Positions 1-27,000 are shown, counted from the stretch's first letter. The stretch: DNA of 64,000 bases from Escherichia coli (GCF_003991155.1 NZ_CP031293.1), one strand, 5' to 3'. Numbers and translations are program-made. Notes: generated by a model not told the origin, from the letters alone.

Positions 1-118
1 TCTCTACCCTGCTTAATGCTGTTAGAGAAGCATTTAGACCCCTTATTTTTAATTACCTAAAGTATCCTCTATACATCTCTGTTATGAAACACCTCTGAAT
101 CCTTCATAAAACACATTA

Positions 119-178
119 TGACGCAAAGAACACTTTTCTAAGGTGATTCCCTTCCTGAACTCTGTTTCTTGCGTCAGA
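119..178. repeat. Imperfect inverted repeat (TGACGCAA...TTGCGTCA arms, about 30-bp spacer)
   Basis: Read directly: tgacgcaaagaacac at 119-133 and ctgtttcttgcgtca at 164-178; the outer 8 bp are perfectly complementary. Confidence 0.5.
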
Positions 179-180
179 GA

Positions 181-300
181 GCTACACAGAGAGCTTATAA
201 AGCTATTATTAATAATAAAGTAGATAAAGTAAGTAAGATAAGTAAGAAGATTAACTAAGATAGATAAGATTAATAAGATCAGAATTCTCTTTCGGTGTCG
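181..300. repeat. Purine-rich low-complexity tract of degenerate AAGATA/AAGTA units
   Basis: Read directly: aagtagataaagtaagtaagataagtaagaagattaactaagatagataagattaataagatc. Confidence 0.5.
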
Positions 301-323
301 CCTCTGGCTTTTCCACCGAAAAC

Positions 324-474
324 AATTACACGACTACAGAATGTAGGAAGTGAAATTGTATTGAGGCTTAGTGAAATTACACGAGGAAAGCAGAGTGTAA
401 TTGAGCTTTAGCCGCTCTCTCTTCGAGTAATTACACAACTACAGAGAATAACAGAGTTATTAAATGTAGGAGGG
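324..474. repeat. Direct repeats AATTACAC(G/A)ACTACAGA ... ATGTAGGA(A/G)G, with extra AATTACAC / GTGTAATT copies forming a short palindrome
   Basis: Copies at 324-350 and 428-474; inverted arms aattacac / gtgtaatt within 371-406. Confidence 0.5.
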
Positions 475-883
475 TAATTAAGAGTTAGAGAGAGTTAACA
501 CGTAAGCAATCAGATGATTGGTTAGGTGATTACTCTTACTGCGCACAGCGCAATAGTATTCCTTCGTGGGCGTTACCGCCAACGATAGTTACACGAAGAA
601 AGTAACGCTTTGCTTTCGGTGTGAGCGGAACGGGCCAGCCACAAAGCCCGAAAGGTAGCGGAGTAAGGCTGCTTGCCAGAGAGTGGAGCTAACGCCGGAA
701 GGCAAAAGATCATATATATAGTATAAAGAATATTATTTAATTATAGTATTGGTGGAACTCATTACCTAAGGTAAACCGGAGACCACTTCCAACGGTTAGG
801 CAACCACTTCCAATTGTGTTATTTCCCCTTTTACCCTAAGTAAATTTTAGCCTTTCGTTACATCCATTTATCACATAGCACTT

Positions 884-1018
884 ACCCTGTGTAAATCATA
901 GAATAATGCTCTCTATTCCCTGTGTAATTCCATACTAAAAAATTCAATGAAAAGTAGTTTAAAAGTGCAATGTTAGCTTTCTTCACTTTTACATCACTTT
1001 CGCTGCGCCTTGTGTAAT
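884..1018. repeat. Three direct copies of a CCYTGTGTAAW motif (iteron or operator-like)
   Basis: ccctgtgtaaat (884-895), ccctgtgtaatt (918-929), ccttgtgtaatg (1007-1018). Confidence 0.45.
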
Positions 1019-1312
1019 GCGGCTTACAGAGCACTATCAGAAATTATTGATCAAAAATCAACCTATTATTTGTCGAACAAGTTTTCTTTAATGCAACAAA
1101 AATTATTTTTTCAAAATAAACACACAATTTAATAGCTTGCTAATTTTACCAAAATGTAACTACATGATTCTCATGCAAGAAGTGTAGTGATAAGGCAGGC
1201 TAAATCACCACACTAAAAAACTTCGAATTTCGTAGTGAAAAAAGTACTTTACACACCTAATCAACACGCCCAATAATCACTACACACAAATCAATACAGA
1301 AGAAAAAAGAAG

Positions 1313-1864
1313 ATGGCTAATATTGGATACATTAGGGTATCGACTGTGCAACAAAACACAGACCGTCAATTAGCAGGAGTAACTCTTGATAAAGTCTTTG
1401 AAGATAAAGCGTCAGGCAAGAACACTCAGCGCCCACAGTTTGAGGCAATGATGAACTATGTGCGGGAGGGTGACGTGTTACACGTCCATAGTATTGATCG
1501 CCTTTGTCGTAATACAGCCGACCTTCTGGCAACTGTAGAGCAATTAACAAAGCGCGGCGTGTCTGTGCATTTCCATAAAGAAGACTTTAAGACAGGAAAG
1601 AACTCTCCCGCAGGGAATATGATGCTCACAGTTCTTGCAGCAGTGGCACAAATGGAACGTGAAATGATGCTTGAGCGTCAACGTGAAGGGATCGCCGCAG
1701 CCAAGGCCGCTGGACGTATAGCAAAACGTGGTAATGGAAAAGCAATTGATCGAGCGGGAATTGCTGCCGCTCTCGCGAATGGTGGCTCAATTCGGAGCGT
1801 AGCAAAAGATTTCAGTGTCAGCACGCAGACGGTGCAACGTATCAAGAAAGAGCAGGTGGCGTAA
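1313..1864 (+). CDS. Small serine recombinase (resolvase/invertase family)
   Basis: 183 aa. N-terminal IGYIRVSTVQQ motif with the catalytic Ser typical of serine recombinases; C-terminal helix-turn-helix (SIRSVAKDFSVSTQTVQRI). Confidence 0.8.
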   Translation: MANIGYIRVSTVQQNTDRQLAGVTLDKVFEDKASGKNTQRPQFEAMMNYVREGDVLHVHSIDRLCRNTADLLATVEQLTKRGVSVHFHKEDFKTGKNSPAGNMMLTVLAAVAQMEREMMLERQREGIAAAKAAGRIAKRGNGKAIDRAGIAAALANGGSIRSVAKDFSVSTQTVQRIKKEQVA

Positions 1865-2030: not shown

Positions 2031-2495
2031 TTATTGATTCAGTCGATCCCATTTAACCGCAGATACAATTCCCCAATTACCACTAGCATTAGGCCTACGC
2101 CACTTCGCGGTTTCCATTCCACGAAGGTATTCGAGAGCTTCATTGAACGAACTGAAACGTTTCTGGGCTGATTTTTCCCCTACTCTAAACGAACCATCGC
2201 GAGTACTTGCCAATCCTGGATGAAAACACGACCCATCTGCAGCATAAGGAACAAGTACCTCCTGATCATCAGGTTTCCTTGAATCAGAAGCCAGTAACTG
2301 CCAAGGCTCAATACGCAAAGCGTCAGCCAGAACCTCAATTGCATCAAGAGATGCATTAGAGCAACCACGCTCAATTCGACTCATATAACTACGTGCAAAA
2401 CCACACCGATCTGCAAAGGCCTCTTGGCTTAAGCCAATAGCTATACGGAACTCTTTTACTCGTTGTCCAAAAAGGTATCTCAGATTCTTTCGCAT
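2031..2495 (-). CDS. XRE-family helix-turn-helix regulator with an uncharacterised C-terminal domain
   Basis: Start trimmed to MRKNLRY. HTH segment IGLSQEAFADRCGFARSYMSRIERG is Cro/CI-like; divergent from the downstream secreted-protein gene. Confidence 0.7.
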   Translation of the reverse strand: MRKNLRYLFGQRVKEFRIAIGLSQEAFADRCGFARSYMSRIERGCSNASLDAIEVLADALRIEPWQLLASDSRKPDDQEVLVPYAADGSCFHPGLASTRDGSFRVGEKSAQKRFSSFNEALEYLRGMETAKWRRPNASGNWGIVSAVKWDRLNQ

Positions 2496-2605
2496 GGCAC
2501 AAAGATGCAATTTGACGCACCAATTAACCACGCACTAATCGTGACATTTTGAATCAATCATGTATTATTAGCATCACCATCCATTTGACACACCAAGGGA
2601 GACAA

Positions 2606-2953
2606 ATGAAAAAACTAGTATTTGCCGCTTTGTTAATTCCAGTGATGGGCCACGCCACAACCTTTTCCTGTAAAGCAATACAGGAAGGTCATATTGACTC
2701 GGGAAGTCAGAAAGTTTCTGTAGATTCAACTTTTGATATACAAGATAAAAAAATGACCATAAATCTTGGCGGTAAAACTTGGAGACTTGATTTGGTAGGT
2801 CAAAAAAGCATCGCAAAGATGTATGCTACACCTGACGGAGGGGTTGCAGCCACATACATTGACAATGGCAGTATACCGATATTTGTATTACGCCCTTCTA
2901 ATCCCGATGGGGAGATGGCTGTTTACACATTGAGTATGTGTTCTGAAGTATGA
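2606..2953 (+). CDS. Small exported protein of unknown function
   Basis: Start trimmed to MKKLVFAALLIPVMGHA, a signal-peptide-like N-terminus. No recognisable domain. Confidence 0.5.
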   Translation: MKKLVFAALLIPVMGHATTFSCKAIQEGHIDSGSQKVSVDSTFDIQDKKMTINLGGKTWRLDLVGQKSIAKMYATPDGGVAATYIDNGSIPIFVLRPSNPDGEMAVYTLSMCSEV

Positions 2954-3030
2954 TTGATCGGCGTGATATTCACGCCGTTTTTGGGGAAATTTGTATATTG
3001 AAAAATATAGAAATAGAACTTTTATCAAGC

Positions 3031-3756
3031 CTATTTATTAACAGGTAGTAATGTCAGATCGCCATAATGGGCTTGTCTATGGCAATTAGGACATAATGCA
3101 ATAGCATTTTCCACAGAGTCCTCCCCCCCCTTTGAAAGCCACTCAATATGATGAACTTCTAGAAATGGAGTACCATCTTCCTTTAGAAAAGGAGCATCTC
3201 GCTTACAATATTGACATTTTCCATTTGCACTCAAAAGAACTTCAGCAACTACATATGGGCTTCGTTTATAAACTCGTGTTGTTACTTCGATTAGTTCCGG
3301 GATTTTACTTTCTGTCGCTAAAATTTGCTTTCGTTCCACTGAAGATAATTTTGCAGCCGTCTCAACAGCTTCTTCGAAAACCGATTTTACTTGACGATAA
3401 CGCCACATCCCTTCTAAATCCTGGTATAATTCCCAAATACCGTGCACAGATGGTTGATAGATTTCAAAAATATTTCCACGCTTGAACAATCGGTCATACT
3501 TATGATGCCGATGAGTTACATCATCAGTTCGTCGGGCAGTTTTGTTGAAACTCCAGTAGCTCCGCTTACAATTAACTGTATTAGCAATTAAATTGAGCCA
3601 AGTATTATCTTTATAAGATGGAAATAGCTTTCTAAGATAATCATCTACCTGCTTAGCCGTTGCAGCCCCACCAAACTGATTAGCAATTATCTGTATGGTA
3701 ATAGCTCTTATCGGTTGATCGCCATACTTGTATTTTTTGCCTAAATTTTTAACCAT
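3031..3756 (-). CDS. McrA-like HNH endonuclease; candidate modification-dependent (type IV) restriction nuclease
   Basis: C-terminal CQYC...LEVHHIEWLSKGGEDSVENAIALCPNCHRQAH is an HNH motif with paired Cys zinc ligands. N-terminal roughly 150 aa unassigned. Confidence 0.6.
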   Translation of the reverse strand: MVKNLGKKYKYGDQPIRAITIQIIANQFGGAATAKQVDDYLRKLFPSYKDNTWLNLIANTVNCKRSYWSFNKTARRTDDVTHRHHKYDRLFKRGNIFEIYQPSVHGIWELYQDLEGMWRYRQVKSVFEEAVETAAKLSSVERKQILATESKIPELIEVTTRVYKRSPYVVAEVLLSANGKCQYCKRDAPFLKEDGTPFLEVHHIEWLSKGGEDSVENAIALCPNCHRQAHYGDLTLLPVNK

Positions 3757-3884: not shown

Positions 3885-5192
3885 CTAAGTCTCCCAACAA
3901 AGACCATCGATCACATAACAAACGGTGGAAAGTGGGAATGTGTGCAGATAACGCTGGGTAATCCCTACTCCACTCTTTTCATGACCTACCACCTGTTGCA
4001 GATGCGCCAAATTACTCACCCAACCAGCTAAACAAGTAGAAATCATAGTATGCCGGAAACTATGCACCAAGCGCCGCTGCCCATAATCATCAAGATAAGG
4101 AATATCAAGCTGATCACGAACATCTGAAAGAACTTTACCTATCTTTGACATATTTCGACCTGAGACTTCCGAAAAGATTTTCTCTTTCCATTGGCGGTTA
4201 ACAAAATCCAGAAACCCCCACTCAATCAGTTTGGGATGAATCACTACCTGTCTTGTAGCATTCTCAGTTTTACCCAGCCTTCTTTCCGCGATCAGAAGAT
4301 AGTGCCGCTGGCTATCTTCATCAAATTTGATCTGCGACTTCTCCAGTTTAGCAATCTCACCTCTTCTGGCTCCTGTGTACGCCAACAACAAAGTGATCCA
4401 CTTCTGCCATCCATCAGGCTGCTTTAGTGCCCATCCTACAAATTTTTTCATTTCTGCTGCACTGTATGCACCAAACCTAGCTTTGGATGGTGCCGCTACT
4501 ATTCCATCAGTCGGAGACTTAGATAGAATATCTTTGTTTTCAGTCAGAAATGTTTTGAATAACGATTTGTAGATTTTAAGGTGCTTATGTACAGCCTCAG
4601 CACCAACTAAATCCTCTGGCAGCACATCATCACATTCGATTAGTTGCTGAATAGTCATTGACCTATACGGTTGCACTACACGCTTTGGTAAGTTTTCGAC
4701 AGTTTCCATTACTCGCTTAATATCTTGTTTGGTGATTGCCGTTACGTCTGTTTCTTTTCCCAAGACAACAAGCAATACCTCCATATAACGCTCATTTGCC
4801 ATTGAGATCGATTTTGTCCAATTTCGACCTCTTTCCTCCTTGTACATAGCCCACGCATCAGCAAGTGTTAGCACCTTTTCCGGTTTGGCTGGTGGTTGAA
4901 GCTGCAAAACTTCTTTAGAAATATTGTTCAATTGCTGAGGGAGTGGCAACGGAATCATTACGTTACGTGACGAAGCGATCAAGTTTGAAACAAACTTATT
5001 AAATTGTGGCAACGGAGTAGCGAGTGATTTAACGAAAGGAATGTGCGGAGTAAGGCCAATCATCAACGCCGATGCTTCGCGATAACTGTCAGTAAAAAGT
5101 GATTTTTTGTATATCCGACCATCCGAAAGCCGGATTTGTAGATAGTAATTACCGTTTCGCTGAAATGTGTATGGGAGAGTTCTTGACCTCAT
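3885..5192 (-). CDS. Tyrosine recombinase / integrase
   Basis: C-terminal catalytic signature (ARRGE, HSFRHT, VGHEK, TQRYLH). Start chosen at the internal Met (MRSRTLPY) because the first Met lacks an upstream ribosome-binding site. Confidence 0.8.
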   Translation of the reverse strand: MRSRTLPYTFQRNGNYYLQIRLSDGRIYKKSLFTDSYREASALMIGLTPHIPFVKSLATPLPQFNKFVSNLIASSRNVMIPLPLPQQLNNISKEVLQLQPPAKPEKVLTLADAWAMYKEERGRNWTKSISMANERYMEVLLVVLGKETDVTAITKQDIKRVMETVENLPKRVVQPYRSMTIQQLIECDDVLPEDLVGAEAVHKHLKIYKSLFKTFLTENKDILSKSPTDGIVAAPSKARFGAYSAAEMKKFVGWALKQPDGWQKWITLLLAYTGARRGEIAKLEKSQIKFDEDSQRHYLLIAERRLGKTENATRQVVIHPKLIEWGFLDFVNRQWKEKIFSEVSGRNMSKIGKVLSDVRDQLDIPYLDDYGQRRLVHSFRHTMISTCLAGWVSNLAHLQQVVGHEKSGVGITQRYLHTFPLSTVCYVIDGLCWET

Positions 5193-5385
5193 AAACGCCC
5201 CCTTTTTGTACCTTAACAGCATGATTTATGGTCAAAAAGAGATACAACCACATAATTTTCAAGACTATTTTGGCCCCCTACGCTGGCATTATCCAGATCA
5301 GGTGATACGGGTATTTCTCAGCCTTCACGCAGAAGGGCACCCCGAGTCGTTTGGTTGCGATGATAAATCGCAAAGGAGGATGGTA

Positions 5386-7286: not shown

Positions 7287-8321
7287 TTAGTCGTATTTCA
7301 CATTGATTAATGCGGTTGCCTCCAGTGCGCCAGATTTAACTTTGTTTGTATCGTAAACGTAGTAACTGGCCGTTATCGGAATTGAAACCGTTGTATCTGT
7401 AAGTTTTGACTTTGCCGCAATTTCTTTTAAATTTGTATATCCTTTACTGCTGTTAGTGATATTTAAAAGTGTGACTGGCGTACCATTACTTTCAAGAATA
7501 AATCCTACGCCATTATCTTCCGCACCTTTCAGGATCGTGTTGCTGTTGGTTAACAAGTCAGAACTTGATAAATACACCTGCATTTTCCGTGATGTTTGAT
7601 TTTGTTGACCTAATAAGTTTTTACAACGCAGAACAATATCCCCTTTGTTACTATTTATTGTTGCTTTGTTACCTGTAGCTGGTAATTGTGAAACGGGAAT
7701 ACTCTCTAACGTAATTAATAAATCGTCCGGTTTGCAGGTTGTGGTTATCGGGTTGTATGACAATGTCAGATTAAAGGAATAGACACCTGCATTTTGTGCC
7801 AATGCATTTCTGTAGCTATTTACACATGCATCCCATGACTTGCCACCGAATAAACACAGTAAAAATTGTACTGCAGCACTCCCGCGTGTCGATGATGAAG
7901 CACTGGATAATGTCGCAACACCATTAATCATCACTGAACCGCCGCCCCCCGCAGAAACATTCACTTTTGCATTACTGGCCGCAGGTGTCACCGTTACCGA
8001 ATAACCACTGGTGAAACTGGTCTGAGTATTTGACAACGTGATGTTGTTTTTATTGGTCCATTCAAAATGTAAATTTAATTTAATGGTATCGTTATAAAGT
8101 CCAACAATAATATCCGACGGGCTCATAGGGGTGATAGTATTTGTACTCACGCATGACGAATCATTAAAATTATGCTCATATGTCGCCATTTGTGTTTGAG
8201 TAAGTGCAAAATCCCCCTGAACAACCAAATTGTGCTGAACAGATAACTCACTATAACATGCTGCATAGCTCACAGGCATAACCATCATTATTAATATAAA
8301 TAGCATTATGCGAATTTCCAT
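7287..8321 (-). CDS. yehA: Fimbrial adhesin-like protein YehA
   Basis: 344 aa, signal peptide; last gene of the yehDCBA operon. Confidence 0.9.
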   Translation of the reverse strand: MEIRIMLFILIMMVMPVSYAACYSELSVQHNLVVQGDFALTQTQMATYEHNFNDSSCVSTNTITPMSPSDIIVGLYNDTIKLNLHFEWTNKNNITLSNTQTSFTSGYSVTVTPAASNAKVNVSAGGGGSVMINGVATLSSASSSTRGSAAVQFLLCLFGGKSWDACVNSYRNALAQNAGVYSFNLTLSYNPITTTCKPDDLLITLESIPVSQLPATGNKATINSNKGDIVLRCKNLLGQQNQTSRKMQVYLSSSDLLTNSNTILKGAEDNGVGFILESNGTPVTLLNITNSSKGYTNLKEIAAKSKLTDTTVSIPITASYYVYDTNKVKSGALEATALINVKYD

Positions 8322-8336
8322 AGAACCACCTGACTA

Positions 8337-10817
8337 TTACTGGCAAATATAATTTTTACTTTCATCAATCTCTTTACCGAAGGTGATTGTGCATGAAAGC
8401 CCTTGTTGCTTATCAATTGCCACATTAACCGATGGCGGTACTTCATTGGTGCGAATAAATAACTGGCTTCCCTGGCCGACAACACCAATATTATGACCAT
8501 GGATATCATTGACTTCATAACCAAACGTTAATGGTTGCCCATCCGCTCTTAATGCTTTTATAAACCATGGCTTGCGCTGATCGGTATCAAAATTAACCAG
8601 TACAACCGCGCCGCGATAAGGGGCGGCAATTTTCCGGTTGCCACGTAATTCTGCTTCGCTATCGCTTTGTGACACATCCAACATCAGGTAATTTTCCCGA
8701 TAAGGTGTCATTCCGTCGTATACCACCACTCCATTACGGTTTGTTGTGCGATATTTTTGCCCATTGACATAAGCATCTTTAATTCCTGGCGCATTCATCA
8801 CAGCAAACGTTTCAGAAAGACGGTTTGCCAGATTAACGCCACCCGACCAGGCGACAATGCCCCCTGAAACACTGGCTCCAGCCTGTCGATAAGCACTCGA
8901 CTGACTATAACTGCCATTCACTGTCGCAACCGGCGCGTTCCAGGTTAAATTCGCCCCAGCTGTCGTTTCATTTCCCTGATACTGATAACTCAGGTTGACC
9001 CCATAGTTAAACTGATCCCGGCTTCCAACGGTTCCTGATAATCCCGTATTATTTGAGGCAACCCCCTGATCATCAAACGTCGTTGAGTTAGACATATATA
9101 TTTGCCGACGAGGCGTCGTAACGTCATCACCCCAATCAAAGGGAATCGATATAAAAATATTAAAACGTTTCTCTTCATGATGATTCTCGTCATAAGCCTG
9201 GCTTGCCGCGAGGGTATAGCTTATCCGTCGCAGGTTGTTGGAATAACTCAACTGATAATCCTTACTACTGCCGCTACGCCCCCAGTAATCTCGCCATAAC
9301 GTACTTAATGACACAGAACCCCAGCCTTCTGGCAATGACTGGCTCATATTAGCAGAAAAGCTATTTTTACGGCCAAAATCGTTCTGGTAATAATCGGCAA
9401 TGTCATAGATATCGTTTTCATCACGGCGATAATTATCTTTATTGTTTGCCCAAACGTGATCGTTAAATGTCCGGTAATCACGCGACGAATAACGCCAGGC
9501 TGCCAGACCAAAACGCGTCGACGTTTGGCTCACAAATTTGTTGTAGGCAATTTGATAACTTTGCCCGTCAAACACATCGCCGTTGTCTTGTTTACTATGC
9601 GACTTCGTGGCATCGACGGAAATGGCACCAATGCGTGTATTCCAGCCAGTCCCCAAAGTGAACGCGTAATAATTATTCGCGACCATCGATCCGCCATACA
9701 GCGTCAATAAGTTATTAAAACCATACTGATAACCCGCCTGAACAAAATCACTTTGTTTGCTCGCCCCTTCAATATGGCTACGACCTGCCGCAAAATCATA
9801 TTTCGACACGCCGGGTTGCAGCATATTCGGCACTGCTGCATAAGGCACCAGATAGGTGGTTACCGAACCGTCCGCCTCTTTCACGCTGACATCAAGATCT
9901 GCTCCACCACCGGCCAACTGCAAATCTGTAATCGCAAACGGGCCAGGAGGAACCTCTTTCTGATAAACCACAAAACCGTTCTGTTCAATAGTTACCAGCG
10001 CGTTACTCTGAGCAATCCCCTGCACCCGTGGCGTAAAATTCTGTTTCGAGTTAGGCAACATCTGCATATCACGAAACAACCGCACACCGCTGAAGCGAAC
10101 AGAATCAAAAATATCGCTTGATGTGTACATATCACCCACGCGAAGCGTGCCGAGAAGTTGGGCAAATCCACGTTCCAGATACAGGGTATTGCTTTTCCAC
10201 ACCCCTGGATTGCTATTTGTTTTACTGAAACTGGCATCAGAATGCAGTTGCCACCCCAGTAAGTTTAACCCGCTGTTAAAACGTACATATGTACTCTTGC
10301 TATTACCCGACGCTTTATAGTCGCTGTAATACTGACTCACATAATAAGAGGTATAAAACGCATTAATACCCCGCTCCCAGTTTTCCGGTGGAACATAGCC
10401 ACTTTCCAGTTCTTCCACCCACGCCTGCGGGACACTGAAATCGAGACGAAAAACTCCGATATCCCAGGTATAGCTCCCACCCTGAACAAGTTGCTCAAAT
10501 GTTAAACATTGCTTACCGCTGGCAAAGTTATCGGTATTAATGCCTAACCGCTTGATAATTTCCCTTGATAAACATGTTTCTTGCGGGTTGTCTTTAACAA
10601 TAATCTCATATTTCCCGCGCCATTGCTTATTGACATAAATATCGATGTCATACTGCCCCGGCAAGGGTTGATTATCATCAAGACGAATATTTGCAACCTG
10701 CTGGTCTTTCATTCCACCTATCATAAAATGGGTATCAAAGGTTTCTTCAGCTGCATAAGCTTCAATGCCGAGCAATAACGCTACGATTGCTGATGCAAGT
10801 GGGGTCATTCTCAACAT
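8337..10817 (-). CDS. yehB: Outer-membrane fimbrial usher YehB
   Basis: Start trimmed to MLRMTPLASAIVALLLGIEAYA, 826 aa; usher-family size and composition. Confidence 0.9.
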   Translation of the reverse strand: MLRMTPLASAIVALLLGIEAYAAEETFDTHFMIGGMKDQQVANIRLDDNQPLPGQYDIDIYVNKQWRGKYEIIVKDNPQETCLSREIIKRLGINTDNFASGKQCLTFEQLVQGGSYTWDIGVFRLDFSVPQAWVEELESGYVPPENWERGINAFYTSYYVSQYYSDYKASGNSKSTYVRFNSGLNLLGWQLHSDASFSKTNSNPGVWKSNTLYLERGFAQLLGTLRVGDMYTSSDIFDSVRFSGVRLFRDMQMLPNSKQNFTPRVQGIAQSNALVTIEQNGFVVYQKEVPPGPFAITDLQLAGGGADLDVSVKEADGSVTTYLVPYAAVPNMLQPGVSKYDFAAGRSHIEGASKQSDFVQAGYQYGFNNLLTLYGGSMVANNYYAFTLGTGWNTRIGAISVDATKSHSKQDNGDVFDGQSYQIAYNKFVSQTSTRFGLAAWRYSSRDYRTFNDHVWANNKDNYRRDENDIYDIADYYQNDFGRKNSFSANMSQSLPEGWGSVSLSTLWRDYWGRSGSSKDYQLSYSNNLRRISYTLAASQAYDENHHEEKRFNIFISIPFDWGDDVTTPRRQIYMSNSTTFDDQGVASNNTGLSGTVGSRDQFNYGVNLSYQYQGNETTAGANLTWNAPVATVNGSYSQSSAYRQAGASVSGGIVAWSGGVNLANRLSETFAVMNAPGIKDAYVNGQKYRTTNRNGVVVYDGMTPYRENYLMLDVSQSDSEAELRGNRKIAAPYRGAVVLVNFDTDQRKPWFIKALRADGQPLTFGYEVNDIHGHNIGVVGQGSQLFIRTNEVPPSVNVAIDKQQGLSCTITFGKEIDESKNYICQ

Positions 10818-10832
10818 AGGCAGCTCCTGCAA

Positions 10833-11507
10833 TTAAATTTTGTCACTAATATAGTTGCCATGGTCATCGATAATGGTCAGATGCCAGTTATTCGCATTAT
10901 TACTTTTGACATTAATACTCTGACTTTCTAAGGGGGCAATCATAATAGTTTCATAATTGACTTTGACATTATTAGCTTTGACATCCGAAATCGTCACCCA
11001 ATTTGCTGAGTCATTTTTTATCACCAATCCATTGCCACTGCGATTTACCCGTAACTTTTTAAATGTCGCTTTATTTACCGGTGCAATACCCGCAGGCCGG
11101 TAAAACAATTTGATTCTGTTTTGCATTGCAAATTTCAGTGCATTCTTGCCCTCTTGCTCTGGACTATTTGGTGGAATATCCAGAACATTCAGATAAAAAA
11201 TGCTCTCTTTATTAGTGGGCAGTTTATTCGGCATAATTTTGATTTTTACTTGCTGCCCGGAATTTGCCCCTATTTTTGCCACTGGTGGCGTTAACATGAA
11301 AGGAACCTGAATTTTTTCTGGTGGTAACGACGTATCACCATCATCAATCCACGCCTGCAGCAGCGAAGAACGGTTTCCCTGATTCATCAACTGCACCATC
11401 ACTTCTTTATTTTCTGCCGGGTAAATAATACGCGTCCCGTAGATAACAATACCGGCATGTGCAGGAAGGACCATAGAAGAAATGAGTAAAGCAAATAATC
11501 CTTTCAT
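10833..11507 (-). CDS. yehC: Periplasmic fimbrial chaperone YehC
   Basis: 224 aa with signal peptide; PapD-like chaperone between major subunit and usher genes. Confidence 0.9.
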   Translation of the reverse strand: MKGLFALLISSMVLPAHAGIVIYGTRIIYPAENKEVMVQLMNQGNRSSLLQAWIDDGDTSLPPEKIQVPFMLTPPVAKIGANSGQQVKIKIMPNKLPTNKESIFYLNVLDIPPNSPEQEGKNALKFAMQNRIKLFYRPAGIAPVNKATFKKLRVNRSGNGLVIKNDSANWVTISDVKANNVKVNYETIMIAPLESQSINVKSNNANNWHLTIIDDHGNYISDKI

Positions 11508-11520
11508 CTTAATGCCTCTT

Positions 11521-11551
11521 AAATTAAAAGGCCGCCATGGGGATAGCGGCC
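11521..11551 (-). terminator. Intra-operon hairpin between yehD and yehC (attenuator)
   Basis: ggccgc / gcggcc stem at 11530-11551 followed on the minus strand by a T-rich run. Confidence 0.45.
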
Positions 11552-11587
11552 ATGTTTATTACCTGGAGAAACTTGAAATTTTATTTA

Positions 11588-12130
11588 TTAATCCTGCGCC
11601 ACACGCATAACCAGAGAAGATAACACATCACCTGATTGCACTGAATTATCTGTCAGCTTCAGGTATTTTGCTTTAAACGGAATAGCATATTGACCTTCCG
11701 CTGTTTTATAACTCTCAATGTTAAAAGGTGCAGAAACATCCAGGACATCGCTGTTATCACCTAAATAGAGATAGTACCCCACGGTATCGTTGCTACTGGC
11801 TATCGCCTTATCGTTTCCGGTTATTTTATCGTTGGTAATCAACGAGAGTTTTACACCAGCAACTTCTTTCGGACAGCTAATTTTTAACATGCTGCTGGTT
11901 ACACCGACTGCATCATCATAGGTCGAGTATTTAGCTTTACCTTCAAAGACAGTGGTTGGTACAGTTGGCATATTAATACTTACTGAATCGCCACCCGCTT
12001 CGAATTTACACGGAGATTCTGCAATATTCCCTTTAATGGTTAATGTTCCGGTATCAACGTCTGCGGCAAATACCCCAGCGCTCATAAAAAAAGAAGAAAA
12101 GACAGCGGCAGCAATAATTGAACGTTTCAT
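11588..12130 (-). CDS. yehD: Major fimbrial subunit YehD
   Basis: 180 aa, signal peptide; first gene of the operon, downstream of an AT-rich region. Confidence 0.9.
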   Translation of the reverse strand: MKRSIIAAAVFSSFFMSAGVFAADVDTGTLTIKGNIAESPCKFEAGGDSVSINMPTVPTTVFEGKAKYSTYDDAVGVTSSMLKISCPKEVAGVKLSLITNDKITGNDKAIASSNDTVGYYLYLGDNSDVLDVSAPFNIESYKTAEGQYAIPFKAKYLKLTDNSVQSGDVLSSLVMRVAQD

Positions 12131-16283: not shown

Positions 16284-16384
16284 ATAAATTCCTAAAGTTG
16301 TTTTCTTGCGATTTTGTCTCTCTCTAACCCGCATAAATACTGGTAGCATCTGCATTCAACTGGATAAAATTACAGGGATGCAGA

Positions 16385-19300
16385 ATGAGACACTTTATCT
16401 ATCAGGACAAAAAATCACATAAATTCTGGGCGGTGGAGCAGCAAGGCAACGAGTTACATATCAGTTGGGGCAAAGTCGGCACTAACGGGCAAAACCAGGT
16501 AAAAAGCTTTGCTGATGCTGCGGCAGCGGCAAAAGCGGAGCTTAAGCTGATCGCGGAGAAAACGAAAAAAGGCTATGTGGAAAATGCTTCAGCAAACGTG
16601 CATATCCCCCCCATCACCAAAGCCACTCCTGAAGTTAAAACTCCCCCTGTGAGTCAAAATAAACACCCATGGCTGGCTGATGATGCAGTCATTCCTGTCA
16701 CTGACGATATTAATCGATTTGCTTTTCCACATCGCTCTCGCCCCAGAGAGATCAATTATCTGCACAAAGATGGTCAAATATGGCAGCGCATTGCGAATAA
16801 CACCAGGGCATATGACCCCGACAATAATTACCGCTCTTATCCTGAAAACTGGCAGCAAGCGTTTGCCGAGTTACAAAGTCGAATTCTGGACAATCAACAA
16901 ACAGGGAGTGCGCAATCTGATGCGGCATTGCTCTGGAGTTTTTGGAACTCTTACTCTGCAGATGAACTGGTCGATGACTTAGTCATTCGCTGTGGTCTGG
17001 AAAGTGCCGTTGAAATCGCCCTTTTTGCTCTTCAACTCAAATATAAACCAGTAAAAGGCGCAGTCACCACCATCATTCCACCTGGTCACAAAGCAGAATC
17101 GCTACCGAGTTGGCATCAACGTCTATGTCATCATCTTTCACTCGCTTCAGAAGATGAGTGGCAACGCTGTGTGAATAAAGTGCTTACTGCTATTCCGACG
17201 CTATCCCCAGCACGGCAACCTTTTGCGGCGTTACTGCTCCCTGAACGCCCGGATATTGCCAATGCTATGGCTCTACGTTACGCAGACCAAAACGTTCCGG
17301 CGATGACCTGGTTAAGACTGGTAGTAACCGATGATGCCGCTCTGACTGCAGCAGAAAAATACGACTTCCCACCGTTATATCGTGATTTTCGCGCTTATCT
17401 GGCAATGTTGCTGGCAAATAATGGGGTGAGCGGTGTAAGCCGGATACTTACTGAGTTTGTGGAAGAGCATTCTGACAATCCCACTTATCTCTTCGAGCGC
17501 ATCAGCGAGACTGAAGATCTTGTCAAATGGTTATGGAAAACGAATCACCCGGATGCGATTCAAATTCTGATCCTCGGTGTAATTGGCAAGAAAAAGCACC
17601 TGGAATACTTAAGCAAAGCCTGTCAAAAACATCCCGCTGCGGCTATTGCCGCTTATGCAACTTTGCTGGCAATACATGAAGATGCACAGTGGCGCAACGC
17701 GCTTGTCAAACTGGTTACCGTCACGCCAGAGTTGGTATGTGACGTCATTCCCTGGGTTAATGCTAAAGCGGCAGGCATCTTATCTGAATGTCGTCCGCAG
17801 CCAGTAGCTGAAGAATGTGAATATGCCACTGTGGATATGTTGCCGGAGCTGTTTGTTTCGCCGCCCTGGATGACCAAAGAGAAAAAGAAAAATACGCCTG
17901 TGTTTGATCTTCCAGTGCTTCCAGTTCCTTCTGTTTCTGATGTCACTCCCGAGATTGCCAAAAGACTAACCCGTACTTACCTTGTCACCCGCTTCCAGCA
18001 AATAGCCCAACAGCAGGCGACAAAACAAACATTGTTTACCGACCTGCCGCCGATAAAAAAAGCAAGCTGGGAGAAACACTTAATACCGCTTACACCGGAG
18101 CAACAAATACTGTGGCATCTTGGTTTTGAAAAATGGCGGGAAAGCGGAGAAAAAATCTACGAAAAAATTCCGGCGCCACAAAGCGCCGTTGATGCCCTGC
18201 TACGCTTCGATTTTCCAGCACTCAATGCTGAATTTGTGCAATACCATAACAATGCATACAAAAGCTGGAATCTCATTGCCCTCTGTTACCTGCCTGGTCA
18301 ACAGGCCATTTCTTTTCTTAACCAGATAGTCAAAGAAGATAACTACTCTGATGAGGGAAATATTCTGGCAATTTTTGGTAGCGCCGCCATACCTGCATTT
18401 ATGACCTGCCTGCAACGTGATCCACGACGTCTGTGCTTCTTCCCCTTTTTCCTCGGTGTCAGTGACCTGGCCTTACCGATGGCGCAACAATTACAGAAAA
18501 AAATGTCTTATGACGATGCGCGAAACTGGCTGACTGATTACCCGCGCCATGCCGCCGCCGGACTGCTTCCTGTAGCACTGGGTAAACACTGCCAAAATCG
18601 GGAATATGCCCGCCAGGCGCTCCGCCTGCTGGTGAATTTAAACCAACGAGAAACGATTGAGGAAATCGCCCGGGGGTATAACCAACCAGATGTTTTAGCT
18701 GCGCTGGCAACATTGTTCGATAGCGACCCACTGGAAGAATATCCTGCAAAAATCGCCCCATTGCCCGGCTTTTATCAGTTCACCTTATGGCGCAGACCAC
18801 GGCTTAAAAGTAACAATCTGCCTCTGTCCGATGACGCTATGCGCCACCTGGGCACTATGTTGAGCTTCCCTCGCGACATTACCGCCTACGCTGGACTGGA
18901 TATCATTAGAGAAATCTTCACCCGGGAATCACTGGCTGACTTTGGCTGGGATCTCTACACGGCATGGATGGAATCTGGCGCGCCCGCAAAAGAAAACTGG
19001 GCATTTACCTCGCTGGGGATTTTAGGCAATAACGACACCGCGCGTAAACTAACCCCGCTTATCCGGGCCTGGCCGGGTGAATCCCAGCATAAACGCGCGG
19101 TTTCTGGGCTCGATGTGTTAGCCAGTATCGGTAGCGATATTGCGCTGATGCTGCTTAATGGCATTGCACAAAAAATTAAATTCAAAGCATTGCAGGAACA
19201 TGCCCGCGACAAAATCAATATGGTCGCCGAAAATCGCGGATTGACAATGGCCGAACTGGAAGACCGCCTGGCTCCAGATTTAGGGCTTGATATCAACGGC

Positions 19301-24001: not shown

Positions 24002-27000
24002 ATGGACAAGGAATTACCGTGGCTGGCGGATAACGCCCAACTGGAACTGAAATATAAAAAAGGCAAAACACCACTCAGCCATCGCAATTGGCCGGGAGAA
24101 CCGGTGCCTGTTATCACTGAAAGCCTCATCCAGACACTGGGTGATAAATTGCTACACATTGCTGAGAAGAAAAAAAACATTGTCTGGCGTTATGAAAATT
24201 TTTCACTGGAATGGCAGTCCGCCATCACGCAGGCCATCAACTTGATCGGCGAGCACAAACCCTCAGTTCCGGCCCGGACAATGGCGGCGCTAGCCTGTAT
24301 CGCGCAAAATGACAGCCAACAGTTGCTCGACGAAATCGTCCAACAAGAGGGACTGGAATATGCGACTGAGGTGGTGATTGCACGCCAGTTTATTGCACAG
24401 TGTTATGAGAGTGATCCTCTGCTAGTGACATTGCAGTATCAGAACGAGGATTATGGCTATGGTTATCGCTCAGAAACCTATAACGAATTCGATCTCCGAC
24501 TGCGTAAGCATCTCTCTCTGGCAGAGGAAAGCTGCTGGCAGCGTTGCGCCGACAAACTCATTGCCGCACTGCCAGGACTACCCCAAGTTCGCCGTCCTTT
24601 TATTGCGCTGATCCTCCCGGAAAAACCAGAAATCGCCAATGAGTTGGTAGGCCTTGAATGCCCGTGGACTCATTTTCATTCTAAGGAGTGGTTAAAAGTT
24701 GTTGCTACTGACCACAGGGCAGTGGGAAAACTCGAACGCTACTGGAGCCAGGATATATTTAGCGATCGCGAAGCCAGCTACATGTCGCATGAAAACCACT
24801 TCGGCTACGCGGCCTGCGCCGCCCTTTTGCGCGAACAAGGAATTGCAGCCGTTCCACGCCTCGCGATGTATGCCCATAAAGAAGATTGCGGCAGTCTGCT
24901 GGTACAAATTAACCATCCGCAGGTCATCCGTACCCTGCTGTTAGTTGCTGATAAAAATAAACCCAGCCTGCAACGTGTGGCTAAATACAGTAAAAACTTC
25001 CCCCATGCGACGCTTGCCGCACTGGCAGAGCTTCTGGCGTTAAAAGAACCGCCTGCACGCCCTGGTTATCCAATCATCGAAGACAAAAAGCTGCCTGCAC
25101 AGCAAAAAGCTCGAGATGAATACTGGCGTACGCTGTTACAAACGCTGATGGCATCGCAGCCACAACTGGCAGAAGAGGTGATGCCGTGGTTAAGTACTCA
25201 AGCCCAGGCAGTGCTGAATAGTTATTTATCGGCACCGCCCAAAACGGTTATTGATAGCACCGATAACATCCAAATGCCTGAAATCCTCGTTTCACCACCG
25301 TGGCGTAGTAAGAAAAAAATGACAGTTCCACGTCTTGATTTGGCACCGTTCGAATTAACGCCGCAAGTTTACTGGCAACCAGGCGAACGAGAGAGGCTTG
25401 CCGCCACTGAGTCTGCCCGTTATTTCAGCACGGAATCTCTTGCGGAACGCATGGAACAAAAAAGTGGACGAGTTGTATTACAGGAGCTGGGTTTTGGAGA
25501 TGATGTATGGCTGTTTTTGAATTATATACTCCCCGGAAAACTGGATGCTGCACGCAATTCACTCATTGTTCAGTGGCATTACTACCCAGGGCGGGTTGAA
25601 GAGATCATGAATGGCTGGAGCTCCCCGGAAGCTCAATTAGCAGAACAGGCGCTTCGCAACGGTCACGTAGAAGTGTTAATTAACATATGGGAAAATGACA
25701 GCTACTCACGCTATCGTCGGGAAAAGAGTATCTGGAACCTGTATTTATTGGCGCAGTTGCCGCGTGAGATGGCTTTGACTTTCTGGCTACGTATCAATGA
25801 GAAAAAGCATCTGTCTGCGGGTGAGGACTATTTTCTCAGTATCTTCGGATTGGATGCTCTACCAGGTCTGCTGTTGGCTTTTTCACATCGTCCAAAAGAA
25901 ACATTTCCATTAATTTTAAATTTCGGCGCAACAGAACTGGCCCTGCCCGTTGCCCGCGTCTGGCGACGTTTCGCGGCGCAGCGTGATCTGGCTCGCCAGT
26001 GGATTTTACATTGGCCGGAACATACAGCTACTGCACTTATCCCTCTTGTCTTCACCAAATCCAGCGATAATAGCGAAGCTGCATTACTTGCCCTGCGTTT
26101 ACTTTACGAACAGGGACATGGCGAATTACTGCAAACCGTGGCAAACCGCTGGCAGCATACAGATGTATGGCCTGCCCTGGAGCAATTACTTAAACAGGGT
26201 CCAATGGACATTTACCCGGCACGCATTCCCAAAGCCCCTGATTTCTGGCATCCGACAATGTGGTCCAGACCGAGACTTATCACGAATAATCAGCCTGTTA
26301 CCGATGATGCTCTGGAAATTATCGGCGACATGCTGCGCTTTACCCAGGGCGGACGTTTTTATTGCGGGCTGGAACAACTGAAAACGTTCTGCCAGCCACA
26401 AACGCTGGCAGCTTTTGCCTGGGATCTCTTCACCGCGTGGCAACAAGTTGGCGCCCCCGCAAAAGACAACTGGGCATTTCTGGCGTTAAGTCTCTTCGGT
26501 GACGAAAGCACGGCTCGGGATCTGACAACACAGATCCTCGCCTGGCCACAGGAAGGCAAATCTGCCCGTGCCGTCAGTGGCCTGAACATACTTACTCAGA
26601 TGAATAATGATATGGCGCTGATACAGCTGCATCATATATCGCAACGGGCGAAATCCCGCCCCTTACGTGATAACGCGGCGGAATTTCTTCAGGTGGTCGC
26701 AGAAAATCGTAGGCTAAGCCAGGAACAGTTAGCGGACAGATTAGTCCCAACACTGGGTCTTGATGATCCGCAGGCGTTGAGTTTTGATTTTGGTCCACGG
26801 CAATTTACCGTTCGCTTTGATGAAAACCTTAACCCGGTTATCTTTGATCAGCAAAACGTTCGCCAGAAAAGCGTTCCCCGGTTGCGCGCCGATGACGATC
26901 AACTGAAAGCGCCCGAGGCACTGGCCCGACTAAAAGGGCTAAAAAAAGATGCGACTCAGGTGAGCAAAAACCTGCTCCCGCGTCTTGAAACGGCCCTACG

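Follow-up and report, generated by a model that had tools for sequence, protein, structure and literature searches.

To our knowledge, few types of regulators have been described for defense islands, namely, the controller (C) proteins of restriction-modification (R-M) systems, BrxR/CapW, CapH/CapP, and RptR. C proteins are small, single-domain proteins of ~70 to 100 amino acids (aa) whose genes precede a co-directional nuclease gene. Their recognition sequence, the C-box, is GACT-N3-AGTC; C.PvuII, C.AhdI, and C.Esp1396I activate transcription from a distal operator and repress it from a proximal one, and a leaderless arrangement is known for C genes. In BrxR/CapW, a ligand-type WYL domain is fused C-terminally to a helix-turn-helix (HTH) domain, and CapH is paired with a partner protease, CapP. 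The targets of BrxR/CapW, CapH/CapP, and RptR are BREX, CBASS, or R-M operons. The divergent CI/Cro switches of phages, such as lambda cI-rexAB and P22 sieA/sieB, belong to elements carrying an accessory envelope or superinfection gene, and the exclusion genes of phages usually share a transcript with the repressor instead of facing it. For RptR, binding to three direct repeats, each with a short palindrome, is described (PMC12255303).

Here, we analyzed a window of 64,000 nucleotides of the Escherichia coli chromosome (GCF_003991155.1, NZ_CP031293.1) containing a divergent gene pair, referred to below as REG, for the regulator, and EXP, for a small exported protein. Judged by sequence, REG most resembles an R-M controller protein. 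The likeness extends to the HTH sequence and the five-helix XRE domain, to putative tandem pseudo-palindromic sites with a period of ~15 bp ahead of its own start codon, which has no Shine-Dalgarno (SD) sequence, and to the position of its HTH-only sisters, which lie directly upstream of R-M and TIR effector genes. However, REG has 154 aa and an independent, conserved 77-aa C-terminal domain (CTD), and its repeat, GTCAC-N5-GTG, differs from the C-box. Moreover, REG precedes no co-directional nuclease gene and faces the gene of an exported protein, whereas its HTH-only relatives do show the C-gene arrangement. Because the single-domain size and the downstream co-directional nuclease gene are both missing, we do not file REG as a C protein.

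Other described systems are further away. Type II antitoxins with an XRE HTH (HigA, HipB, and MqsA-like proteins) are accompanied by a cytoplasmic, co-transcribed toxin, whereas the neighbor of REG is divergent and carries a signal peptide. BrxR/CapW, CapH/CapP, and RptR are similar in concept only, as small HTH regulators in defense islands with repeats in the local promoter: the REG CTD is not a WYL domain, REG has no partner such as CapP, it is a different protein from RptR with repeats that differ from the TAGCTA site of the latter, and its putative target is a small exported protein. As in the phage CI/Cro switches, an XRE repressor would lie opposite the promoter that it would occlude, but the REG island is not a prophage, a LexA/CI-type S24 peptidase domain is absent from the REG C terminus, EXP has no phage match, and a role of EXP in exclusion is conjectural. 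Literature searches on thiM-riboswitch islands, DUF6538 integrases, and defense-island regulators yielded no account of the REG/exported-partner module. What sequence comparison newly brings out here is the unannotated CTD together with a conserved regulator/exported-partner architecture. The locus also lends itself to experiments on cis regulation, with coordinates in hand for the putative operator and promoter.

Island setting of REG and EXP

Bases 1 to ~5354 of the window form the right-hand part of a ~7.7-kb integrase island that sits between thiM and rcnR and is inserted in the thiM TPP riboswitch (Table 1). Full-length copies of the island region with 99.9% identity are present in 64 of 5,426 complete E. 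coli genomes (4.2-kb query). In strain LWY24, two annotated TPP riboswitches flank the island, and an identical 84-bp stretch common to both spans the aptamer; the riboswitch copies that contain this att repeat lie at positions 16327 to 16423 and 24060 to 24155 of locus L001. The rcnR-side riboswitch copy retains its native upstream DNA and is located ~60 nt upstream of the integrase open reading frame (ORF), a position from which it could place int under the control of TPP. On the thiM side, the copy retains the thiM expression platform, and its upstream DNA is that of the island. Islands in Enterobacter whose integrase shares 79% identity have the same TPP riboswitch insertion site.

TABLE 1 Features of the REG/EXP island in the window
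Feature	Position	Strand	Remarks
Serine recombinase (resolvase/invertase)	1313-1864	+	Convergent with REG; Pfam Resolvase 1e-38; phrog_125 DNA invertase 2e-61
REG, 154 aa	2031-2495	-	Stop codon 2031-2033; ATG 2495; RefSeq WP_001316486
REG residues 78-154, CTD	2034-2264	-	Motif VPxAxDGSxF...VGxKG...AL.YL..M..AxWRRPNxxGNWGIVSAV.W
REG residues 9-63, XRE/Cro-CI HTH	2307-2471	-	HTH_31 5e-12; HTH_3 1e-9
Putative REG operator	2510-2547	-	Two ~15-bp tandem pseudo-palindromic repeats (direct repeats D1/D2)
Proximal operator site	2518-2528		Putative
Distal operator site	2533-2545		Putative; GTCAC-GATTA-GTG
Promoter-like site for EXP	2541-2568	+	GTGACA (2541-2546)-16 nt-TATTAT (2563-2568); 10/12 match
Second promoter-like site	2564-2591	-	GTGTCA-16-AATAAT on REG strand; -10 overlaps EXP promoter -10
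SD sequence of EXP	2597-2601		GGGAG
EXP, 115 aa	2607-2953	+	RefSeq WP_000737407
EXP signal peptide	2607-2657	+	MKK / LVFAALLIPVMG / HA|TT
Intrinsic-terminator-like hairpin and T-run just after EXP	2959-2987	+	8-pair stem, 6 GC pairs, TTTTT; hairpin 2959-2977
HNH endonuclease	3031-3756	-	Pfam HNH 1e-12; PADLOC mREase_IV 1.9e-23
Island tyrosine integrase	3885-5222	-	Pfam Phage_integrase; RefSeq start 5192
TPP riboswitch aptamer, one copy of the 84-bp island terminal repeat (att site)	5259-5354	-	Rfam RF00059, 61.3 bits

With an integrase and a recombinase, variable defense cargo, and no other mobility genes, the island resembles the "integrase-only" E. coli defense islands of Hochhauser et al. 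2023 (PMC10121019). That study makes no mention of thiM, rcnR, or a resolvase, and the regulator/exported-protein module is not described in it. The HNH endonuclease, which resembles a type IV restriction enzyme, is likely the defense cargo here. It is encoded upstream of REG, beyond EXP. No co-directional gene lies downstream of REG, where the convergent resolvase is found, and the genes downstream of REG homologues vary by locus. The ~1.7 kb of island DNA upstream of the resolvase (window positions 1 to 1312; L001 18349 to 20114) contains only short ORFs and no annotated gene. A conserved ~305-aa gene (P304) found near REG in related islands is absent from this one. In general, the neighborhoods of REG homologues are small integrase islands with changing defense cargo, including Gabija-like OLD/UvrD genes, OLD with DUF8370/8371, NA37, AIPR, and HNH genes. 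A serine recombinase is usually nearby, at a distance of less than ~2 kb in most loci. Its position and orientation relative to the REG/partner pair follow three arrangements across islands, and this variation may reflect recombinase-mediated rearrangement or module exchange.

Both REG and EXP are called by PGAP. The first-pass annotation, made from the sequence alone, had described a regulator with a Cro/CI-type HTH and an extra C-terminal stretch next to a small exported protein, and both descriptions hold: in REG the HTH is accompanied by 77 C-terminal aa without a family match, and the EXP ORF starts with a typical signal peptide. The HTH scores above the Pfam gathering thresholds for HTH_31 (46.3 bits; cutoff, 27) and HTH_3 (38.3 bits; cutoff, 23). 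It is nearest to R-M controller proteins (PADLOC Control_protein, 5.7e-17), with C.AhdI (8.6e-16) and C.BclI (4.8e-15) as the top PDB matches. Neither this kinship nor the recurrence of the CTD in anti-phage proteins had been noted in the first-pass annotation. NCBIfam antitoxin models (HipB, MqsA, and PezA) match the HTH only and far below their cutoffs. AlphaFold predicts full-length REG as two well-defined domains separated by a disordered linker at residues 72 to 77 (pLDDT, 88.8), with five helices in the XRE domain of the AF2 model. REG is conserved over its full length, at 51 to 82% identity, in Enterobacterales, Pseudomonas, and Betaproteobacteria. A longer REG reading frame starting at GTG 2531 was considered and rejected: there is an in-frame upstream stop in L020, Met1 is invariant among 41 aligned homologues, and the RefSeq protein has 154 aa.

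Mature EXP would comprise 98 aa. The predicted cleavage site is retained in 18 EXP homologues, in which C22 is invariant and C112 is present in at least 90%. As far as these sequence features indicate, EXP is probably a Sec-exported, disulfide-bonded periplasmic protein. It matches phrog_35183 over its full length (5e-26; function not annotated) and no other family in Pfam, NCBIfam, PADLOC, or PHROGs. No match was obtained in 50,697 phage records, and a profile search for distant relatives found the family confined to Enterobacterales. In Kiwa/Eco29kI and type IIG R-M islands lacking REG, homologues with 66 to 69% identity are accompanied by further small secreted ORFs. The region upstream of these homologues differs from that in the window, and GATC-containing repeats are abundant in it. 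In L010 (7821 to 8000), L015, L017, and L019, the EXP homologue follows a conserved region that has several GATC-bearing inverted or direct repeats (TGATCAATTTTATCGATCAAT...AAATTGATCG) and a TATAAT. This GATC-rich region suggests another regulator or Dam-sensitive control.

Putative operator and promoters in the shared spacer

REG and EXP had been said to share a 110-bp AT-rich spacer. The spacer is real, with a length of 111 bp; its A+T content, 60% compared to 59% for the island, is no distinction. Read on the REG strand, the putative operator is ATGTCAC-GATTA-GTGCGTGG-TTAATTGGTGCGTC, and it ends ~15 to 20 nt ahead of the REG ATG. Two or three tandem repeats of ~15 bp are kept upstream of REG in 31 loci from Enterobacterales, Pseudomonas, and Betaproteobacteria. 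The same repeats precede HTH-only relatives of REG of 70 to 79 aa, and GTGCGT in the repeat changes to GTGTGT in clades where the recognition helix is RTYMSRIETG and not RSYMSRIERG. Its presence before HTH-only relatives and its covariation with the recognition helix link the element to the HTH rather than to the CTD or the partner gene.

Four of the HTH-only relatives (in L052, L053, L054, and L098, at about 8000 to 12000) lie directly upstream of genes encoding a TIR effector, a DUF5677 protein, and MmeI-type and type-ISP-like enzymes. They would be a controller-protein clade serving nonclassical defense genes. In Pseudomonas, HTH-only relatives are found in operons with a resolvase.

The motif GTCAC-N5-GTG occurs as a single copy, between REG and EXP, in 44 kb comprising the island and 36 kb of flanks. 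We therefore consider it unlikely, on this sequence evidence, that REG acts through this motif on the integrase, HNH, or resolvase genes, and a role as their master regulator was rejected for want of a second operator in the 44 kb.

REG has no SD sequence, and a conserved −10-like element, CAYMTT, lies 6 to 7 nt ahead of its ATG, so the REG mRNA is probably leaderless. On the EXP side, GTGACA, the −35 hexamer of the promoter-like site, makes up the left half of the putative distal site. This overlap is not confined to the window. A [CT][AT]C-N5-GTGACA element followed, after 15 to 17 nt, by TATNAT is found in 18 of the 31 REG loci. These 18 comprise virtually every Enterobacterales locus for which the upstream sequence was long enough, and they represent four unrelated partner families. 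In loci whose partner belongs to a 165-aa family with two transmembrane helices (S165), the spacer is 220 bp long, and a second operator copy, 142 nt upstream, supplies the −35 of the partner. A σ70 consensus promoter overlapping the operator was not detected in the GC-richer Pseudomonas and Betaproteobacteria loci. The second promoter-like site on the REG strand (Table 1) was not found in L002 and is not conserved in other loci. A σ54 promoter within the conserved element was also considered and rejected, as the GG/GC spacing, judged by eye, is wrong and the element is not conserved in L020.

The earlier suggestion that such pairs can be repressor controlled fits the geometry of the spacer: the sole operator-like site in the 44 kb is intergenic and holds the −35 of a near-consensus EXP promoter.

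Divergent partners and the proposed circuit

Another REG/EXP pair, with identical spacing and 67%/73% identity, is present in a different island (L020/L021), which carries a DUF5906 primase and AIPR. Strict co-inheritance of the two genes was rejected, as EXP homologues are present in islands without REG and most REG homologues face unrelated exported proteins. These other partners include S165 in Enterobacterales, a signal-anchored family of 211 to 247 aa, and several singletons; in all, the divergent partners come from roughly 8 to 10 unrelated families, none of which is in Pfam. The divergent partner has a signal peptide, a lipobox, or a transmembrane helix, and is hence exported or membrane bound, in ~26 of 28 loci. 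A crude signal-peptide heuristic was positive for 19/28 partners compared to 60/303 other ORFs of the same loci (Fisher P = 2.7e-7), a value that is indicative only and overstates the support, as the loci are phylogenetically related. The first-pass placement of such pairs on islands is borne out, as the two genes lie on an integrative island with defense-type cargo. In almost every locus examined, moreover, the REG homologue is divergent from a gene for a small protein that is exported or membrane bound.

Because EXP homologues occur without REG under a different upstream region, the link drawn from these sequences joins REG to a "slot" rather than to EXP in particular. This one regulatory slot is shared by about ten families of small exported proteins, all unannotated, which could be envelope-level exclusion, immunity, or effector proteins. 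As the slot holds unrelated exported or membrane proteins in other islands, we infer that EXP probably has a role at the cell envelope, be it in exclusion, immunity, or as an effector.

From these sequence relationships we infer binding, the sign of regulation, sensing, and phenotype, and we see about even chances that REG is an autoregulated local repressor, possibly signal sensing through its CTD, with a swappable envelope protein under its control. A REG dimer would bind, through its HTH, the two tandem pseudo-palindromic sites upstream of its own start codon and thereby autoregulate its gene. Since GTGACA serves both as the EXP −35 and as half of the distal site, the same binding would repress the divergent EXP promoter by occlusion and keep the exported protein off. 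The CTD would sense a cue, probably a nucleic acid or a nucleotide-derived molecule, that changes operator occupancy and releases EXP. The EXP cassette, which is equipped with a promoter, an SD sequence, and a terminator of its own, would then act at the envelope. The sign of regulation is uncertain because C proteins are usually activators at low concentration.

Alternatively, the two genes may be neighbors without coupling: REG, as a backbone regulator of these islands, would only autoregulate, for example, as a maintenance or immunity repressor, and the exported proteins would be independent "moron" cassettes inserting beside it. We regard this as possible but not probable. It is in keeping with the self-contained EXP cassette, with the presence of EXP in islands lacking REG under other upstream control, with partner genes that are mutually unrelated, and with an operator whose distance is fixed to REG and not to the partner. 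On the other hand, each of the Enterobacterales types has the −35 of the partner within a copy of the operator, including the extra S165 copy 142 nt away, and the partners are nearly all exported or membrane proteins, not random cargo.

The position of the operator also bears on whether REG could be an activator in the manner of C proteins, with binding at the distal site bringing RNA polymerase to the weak promoter of REG itself, and perhaps also to the divergent promoter, such that EXP is co-expressed with REG. The EXP promoter matches the consensus at 10 to 11 of 12 positions, so an activator should be unneeded, and the operator palindrome is centered near −38 and covers the −35 hexamer itself. 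The nearest characterized relatives of REG, the C proteins, do act as activators at the distal operator and as repressors at the proximal one, and the REG promoter has no recognizable −35; nonetheless, we find the activator reading rather improbable.

It is very unlikely that REG serves as the antitoxin in a toxin-antitoxin or abortive-infection pair, with its CTD neutralizing a toxic partner, be it EXP or some other protein of the island. Antitoxins that combine an XRE HTH with a C-terminal toxin-binding domain are common, REG has weak HTH-level matches to HipB, MqsA, and PezA, and the island belongs to a defense context, but the partner is divergent and Sec exported and so ends up in a compartment other than that of REG, the partners come from unrelated families whereas the CTD is conserved at 50 to 80%, and this domain is found on its own and in fusions with enzymes as well. 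Finally, that the conserved repeats are a recombination site of the neighboring serine recombinase or an island-end element, rather than the REG operator, is scarcely credible: most loci have a resolvase no more than ~2 kb from REG, in variable position and orientation, and Pseudomonas HTH-only relatives share operons with one, but the distance of the element to the REG start is fixed, the element also occurs without a nearby resolvase (e.g., in L052 and L053) and covaries with the HTH clade, and tandem pseudo-palindromes with a period of ~15 bp have the form of C-boxes.

The C-terminal domain of REG

The sensing step of the proposed repressor circuit would fall to the CTD. Structure prediction of the regulator C terminus, which the first-pass annotation had put forward as a check, gave a confident fold for this domain (pLDDT, 95) with a β-β-β-α-β-β secondary structure. 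The CTD has no family in Pfam, NCBIfam, PADLOC, or PHROGs. A profile search against PDB sequences returned nothing below an E value of 0.2, and a Foldseek search of its structure against BFVD returned nothing at an E value of <0.1. Neither WYL nor any other Pfam match covers it in REG or in 148 CTD-containing proteins, and an hhalign comparison found it unrelated to the neighboring HNH protein.

An exhaustive HMMER scan found the CTD in 470 clusters at 50% identity. It is usually C terminal in its host proteins and is often a stand-alone protein of 80 to 130 aa. The fusions join it to ASCH in 20 of the 148 proteins, to UDG-like domains in 2, to an RNase T/DEDDh exonuclease, and to the N terminus of Druantia III DruH (PADLOC DruH3, 1.4e-290); one ASCH-CTD gene directly follows Zorya-type genes. 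Given these fusions and this neighborhood, sequence comparison presents the CTD as a real, uncharacterized add-on module that is shared among proteins of anti-phage systems and mobile elements. Its partners, which comprise an HTH as well as nucleases and base-recognizing enzymes, resemble the fusion partners of the CARF, SAVED, and WYL sensor domains, and we interpret this set, by analogy, as a sensor-domain pattern.

A more far-reaching proposal, which we hold to be doubtful, is that the CTD is an undescribed infection-sensing module for nucleic-acid structure or a nucleotide-derived ligand, plugged into REG, DruH, DEDDh, and ASCH/UDG-like outputs, and that REG with its swappable exported partner would be a new two-gene inducible envelope defense or exclusion module on riboswitch-targeting integrase islands. 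If the CTD proves to be a sensor, a common cue would link several defense systems; if it does not, the locus would still be a clean case of a C-protein-type switch reused outside restriction-modification.

The phage collection gave a single match to the CTD, MT836560.1 (L103), an unverified scaffold that is itself an island. This 9.7-kb "Bacteriophage sp." record holds a complete island with an integrase, NA37 cargo, a resolvase, and REG, and two tandem small exported ORFs are divergent from REG in it. The record represents either virome contamination or a hint that REG islands get packaged.

In many Rhodobacterales, a ~330-aa protein ending in the CTD forms a conserved pair with a DEDDh protein, with an integrase adjacent. 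The pair is found in L056 to L094; for example, in L070 (7251 to 9895), the ~330-aa CTD protein and a ~539-aa DEDDh-exonuclease protein lie beside a tyrosine integrase. The ~539-aa protein is similar to the PADLOC candidate PDC-S48, and the unit looks like an undescribed defense pair.
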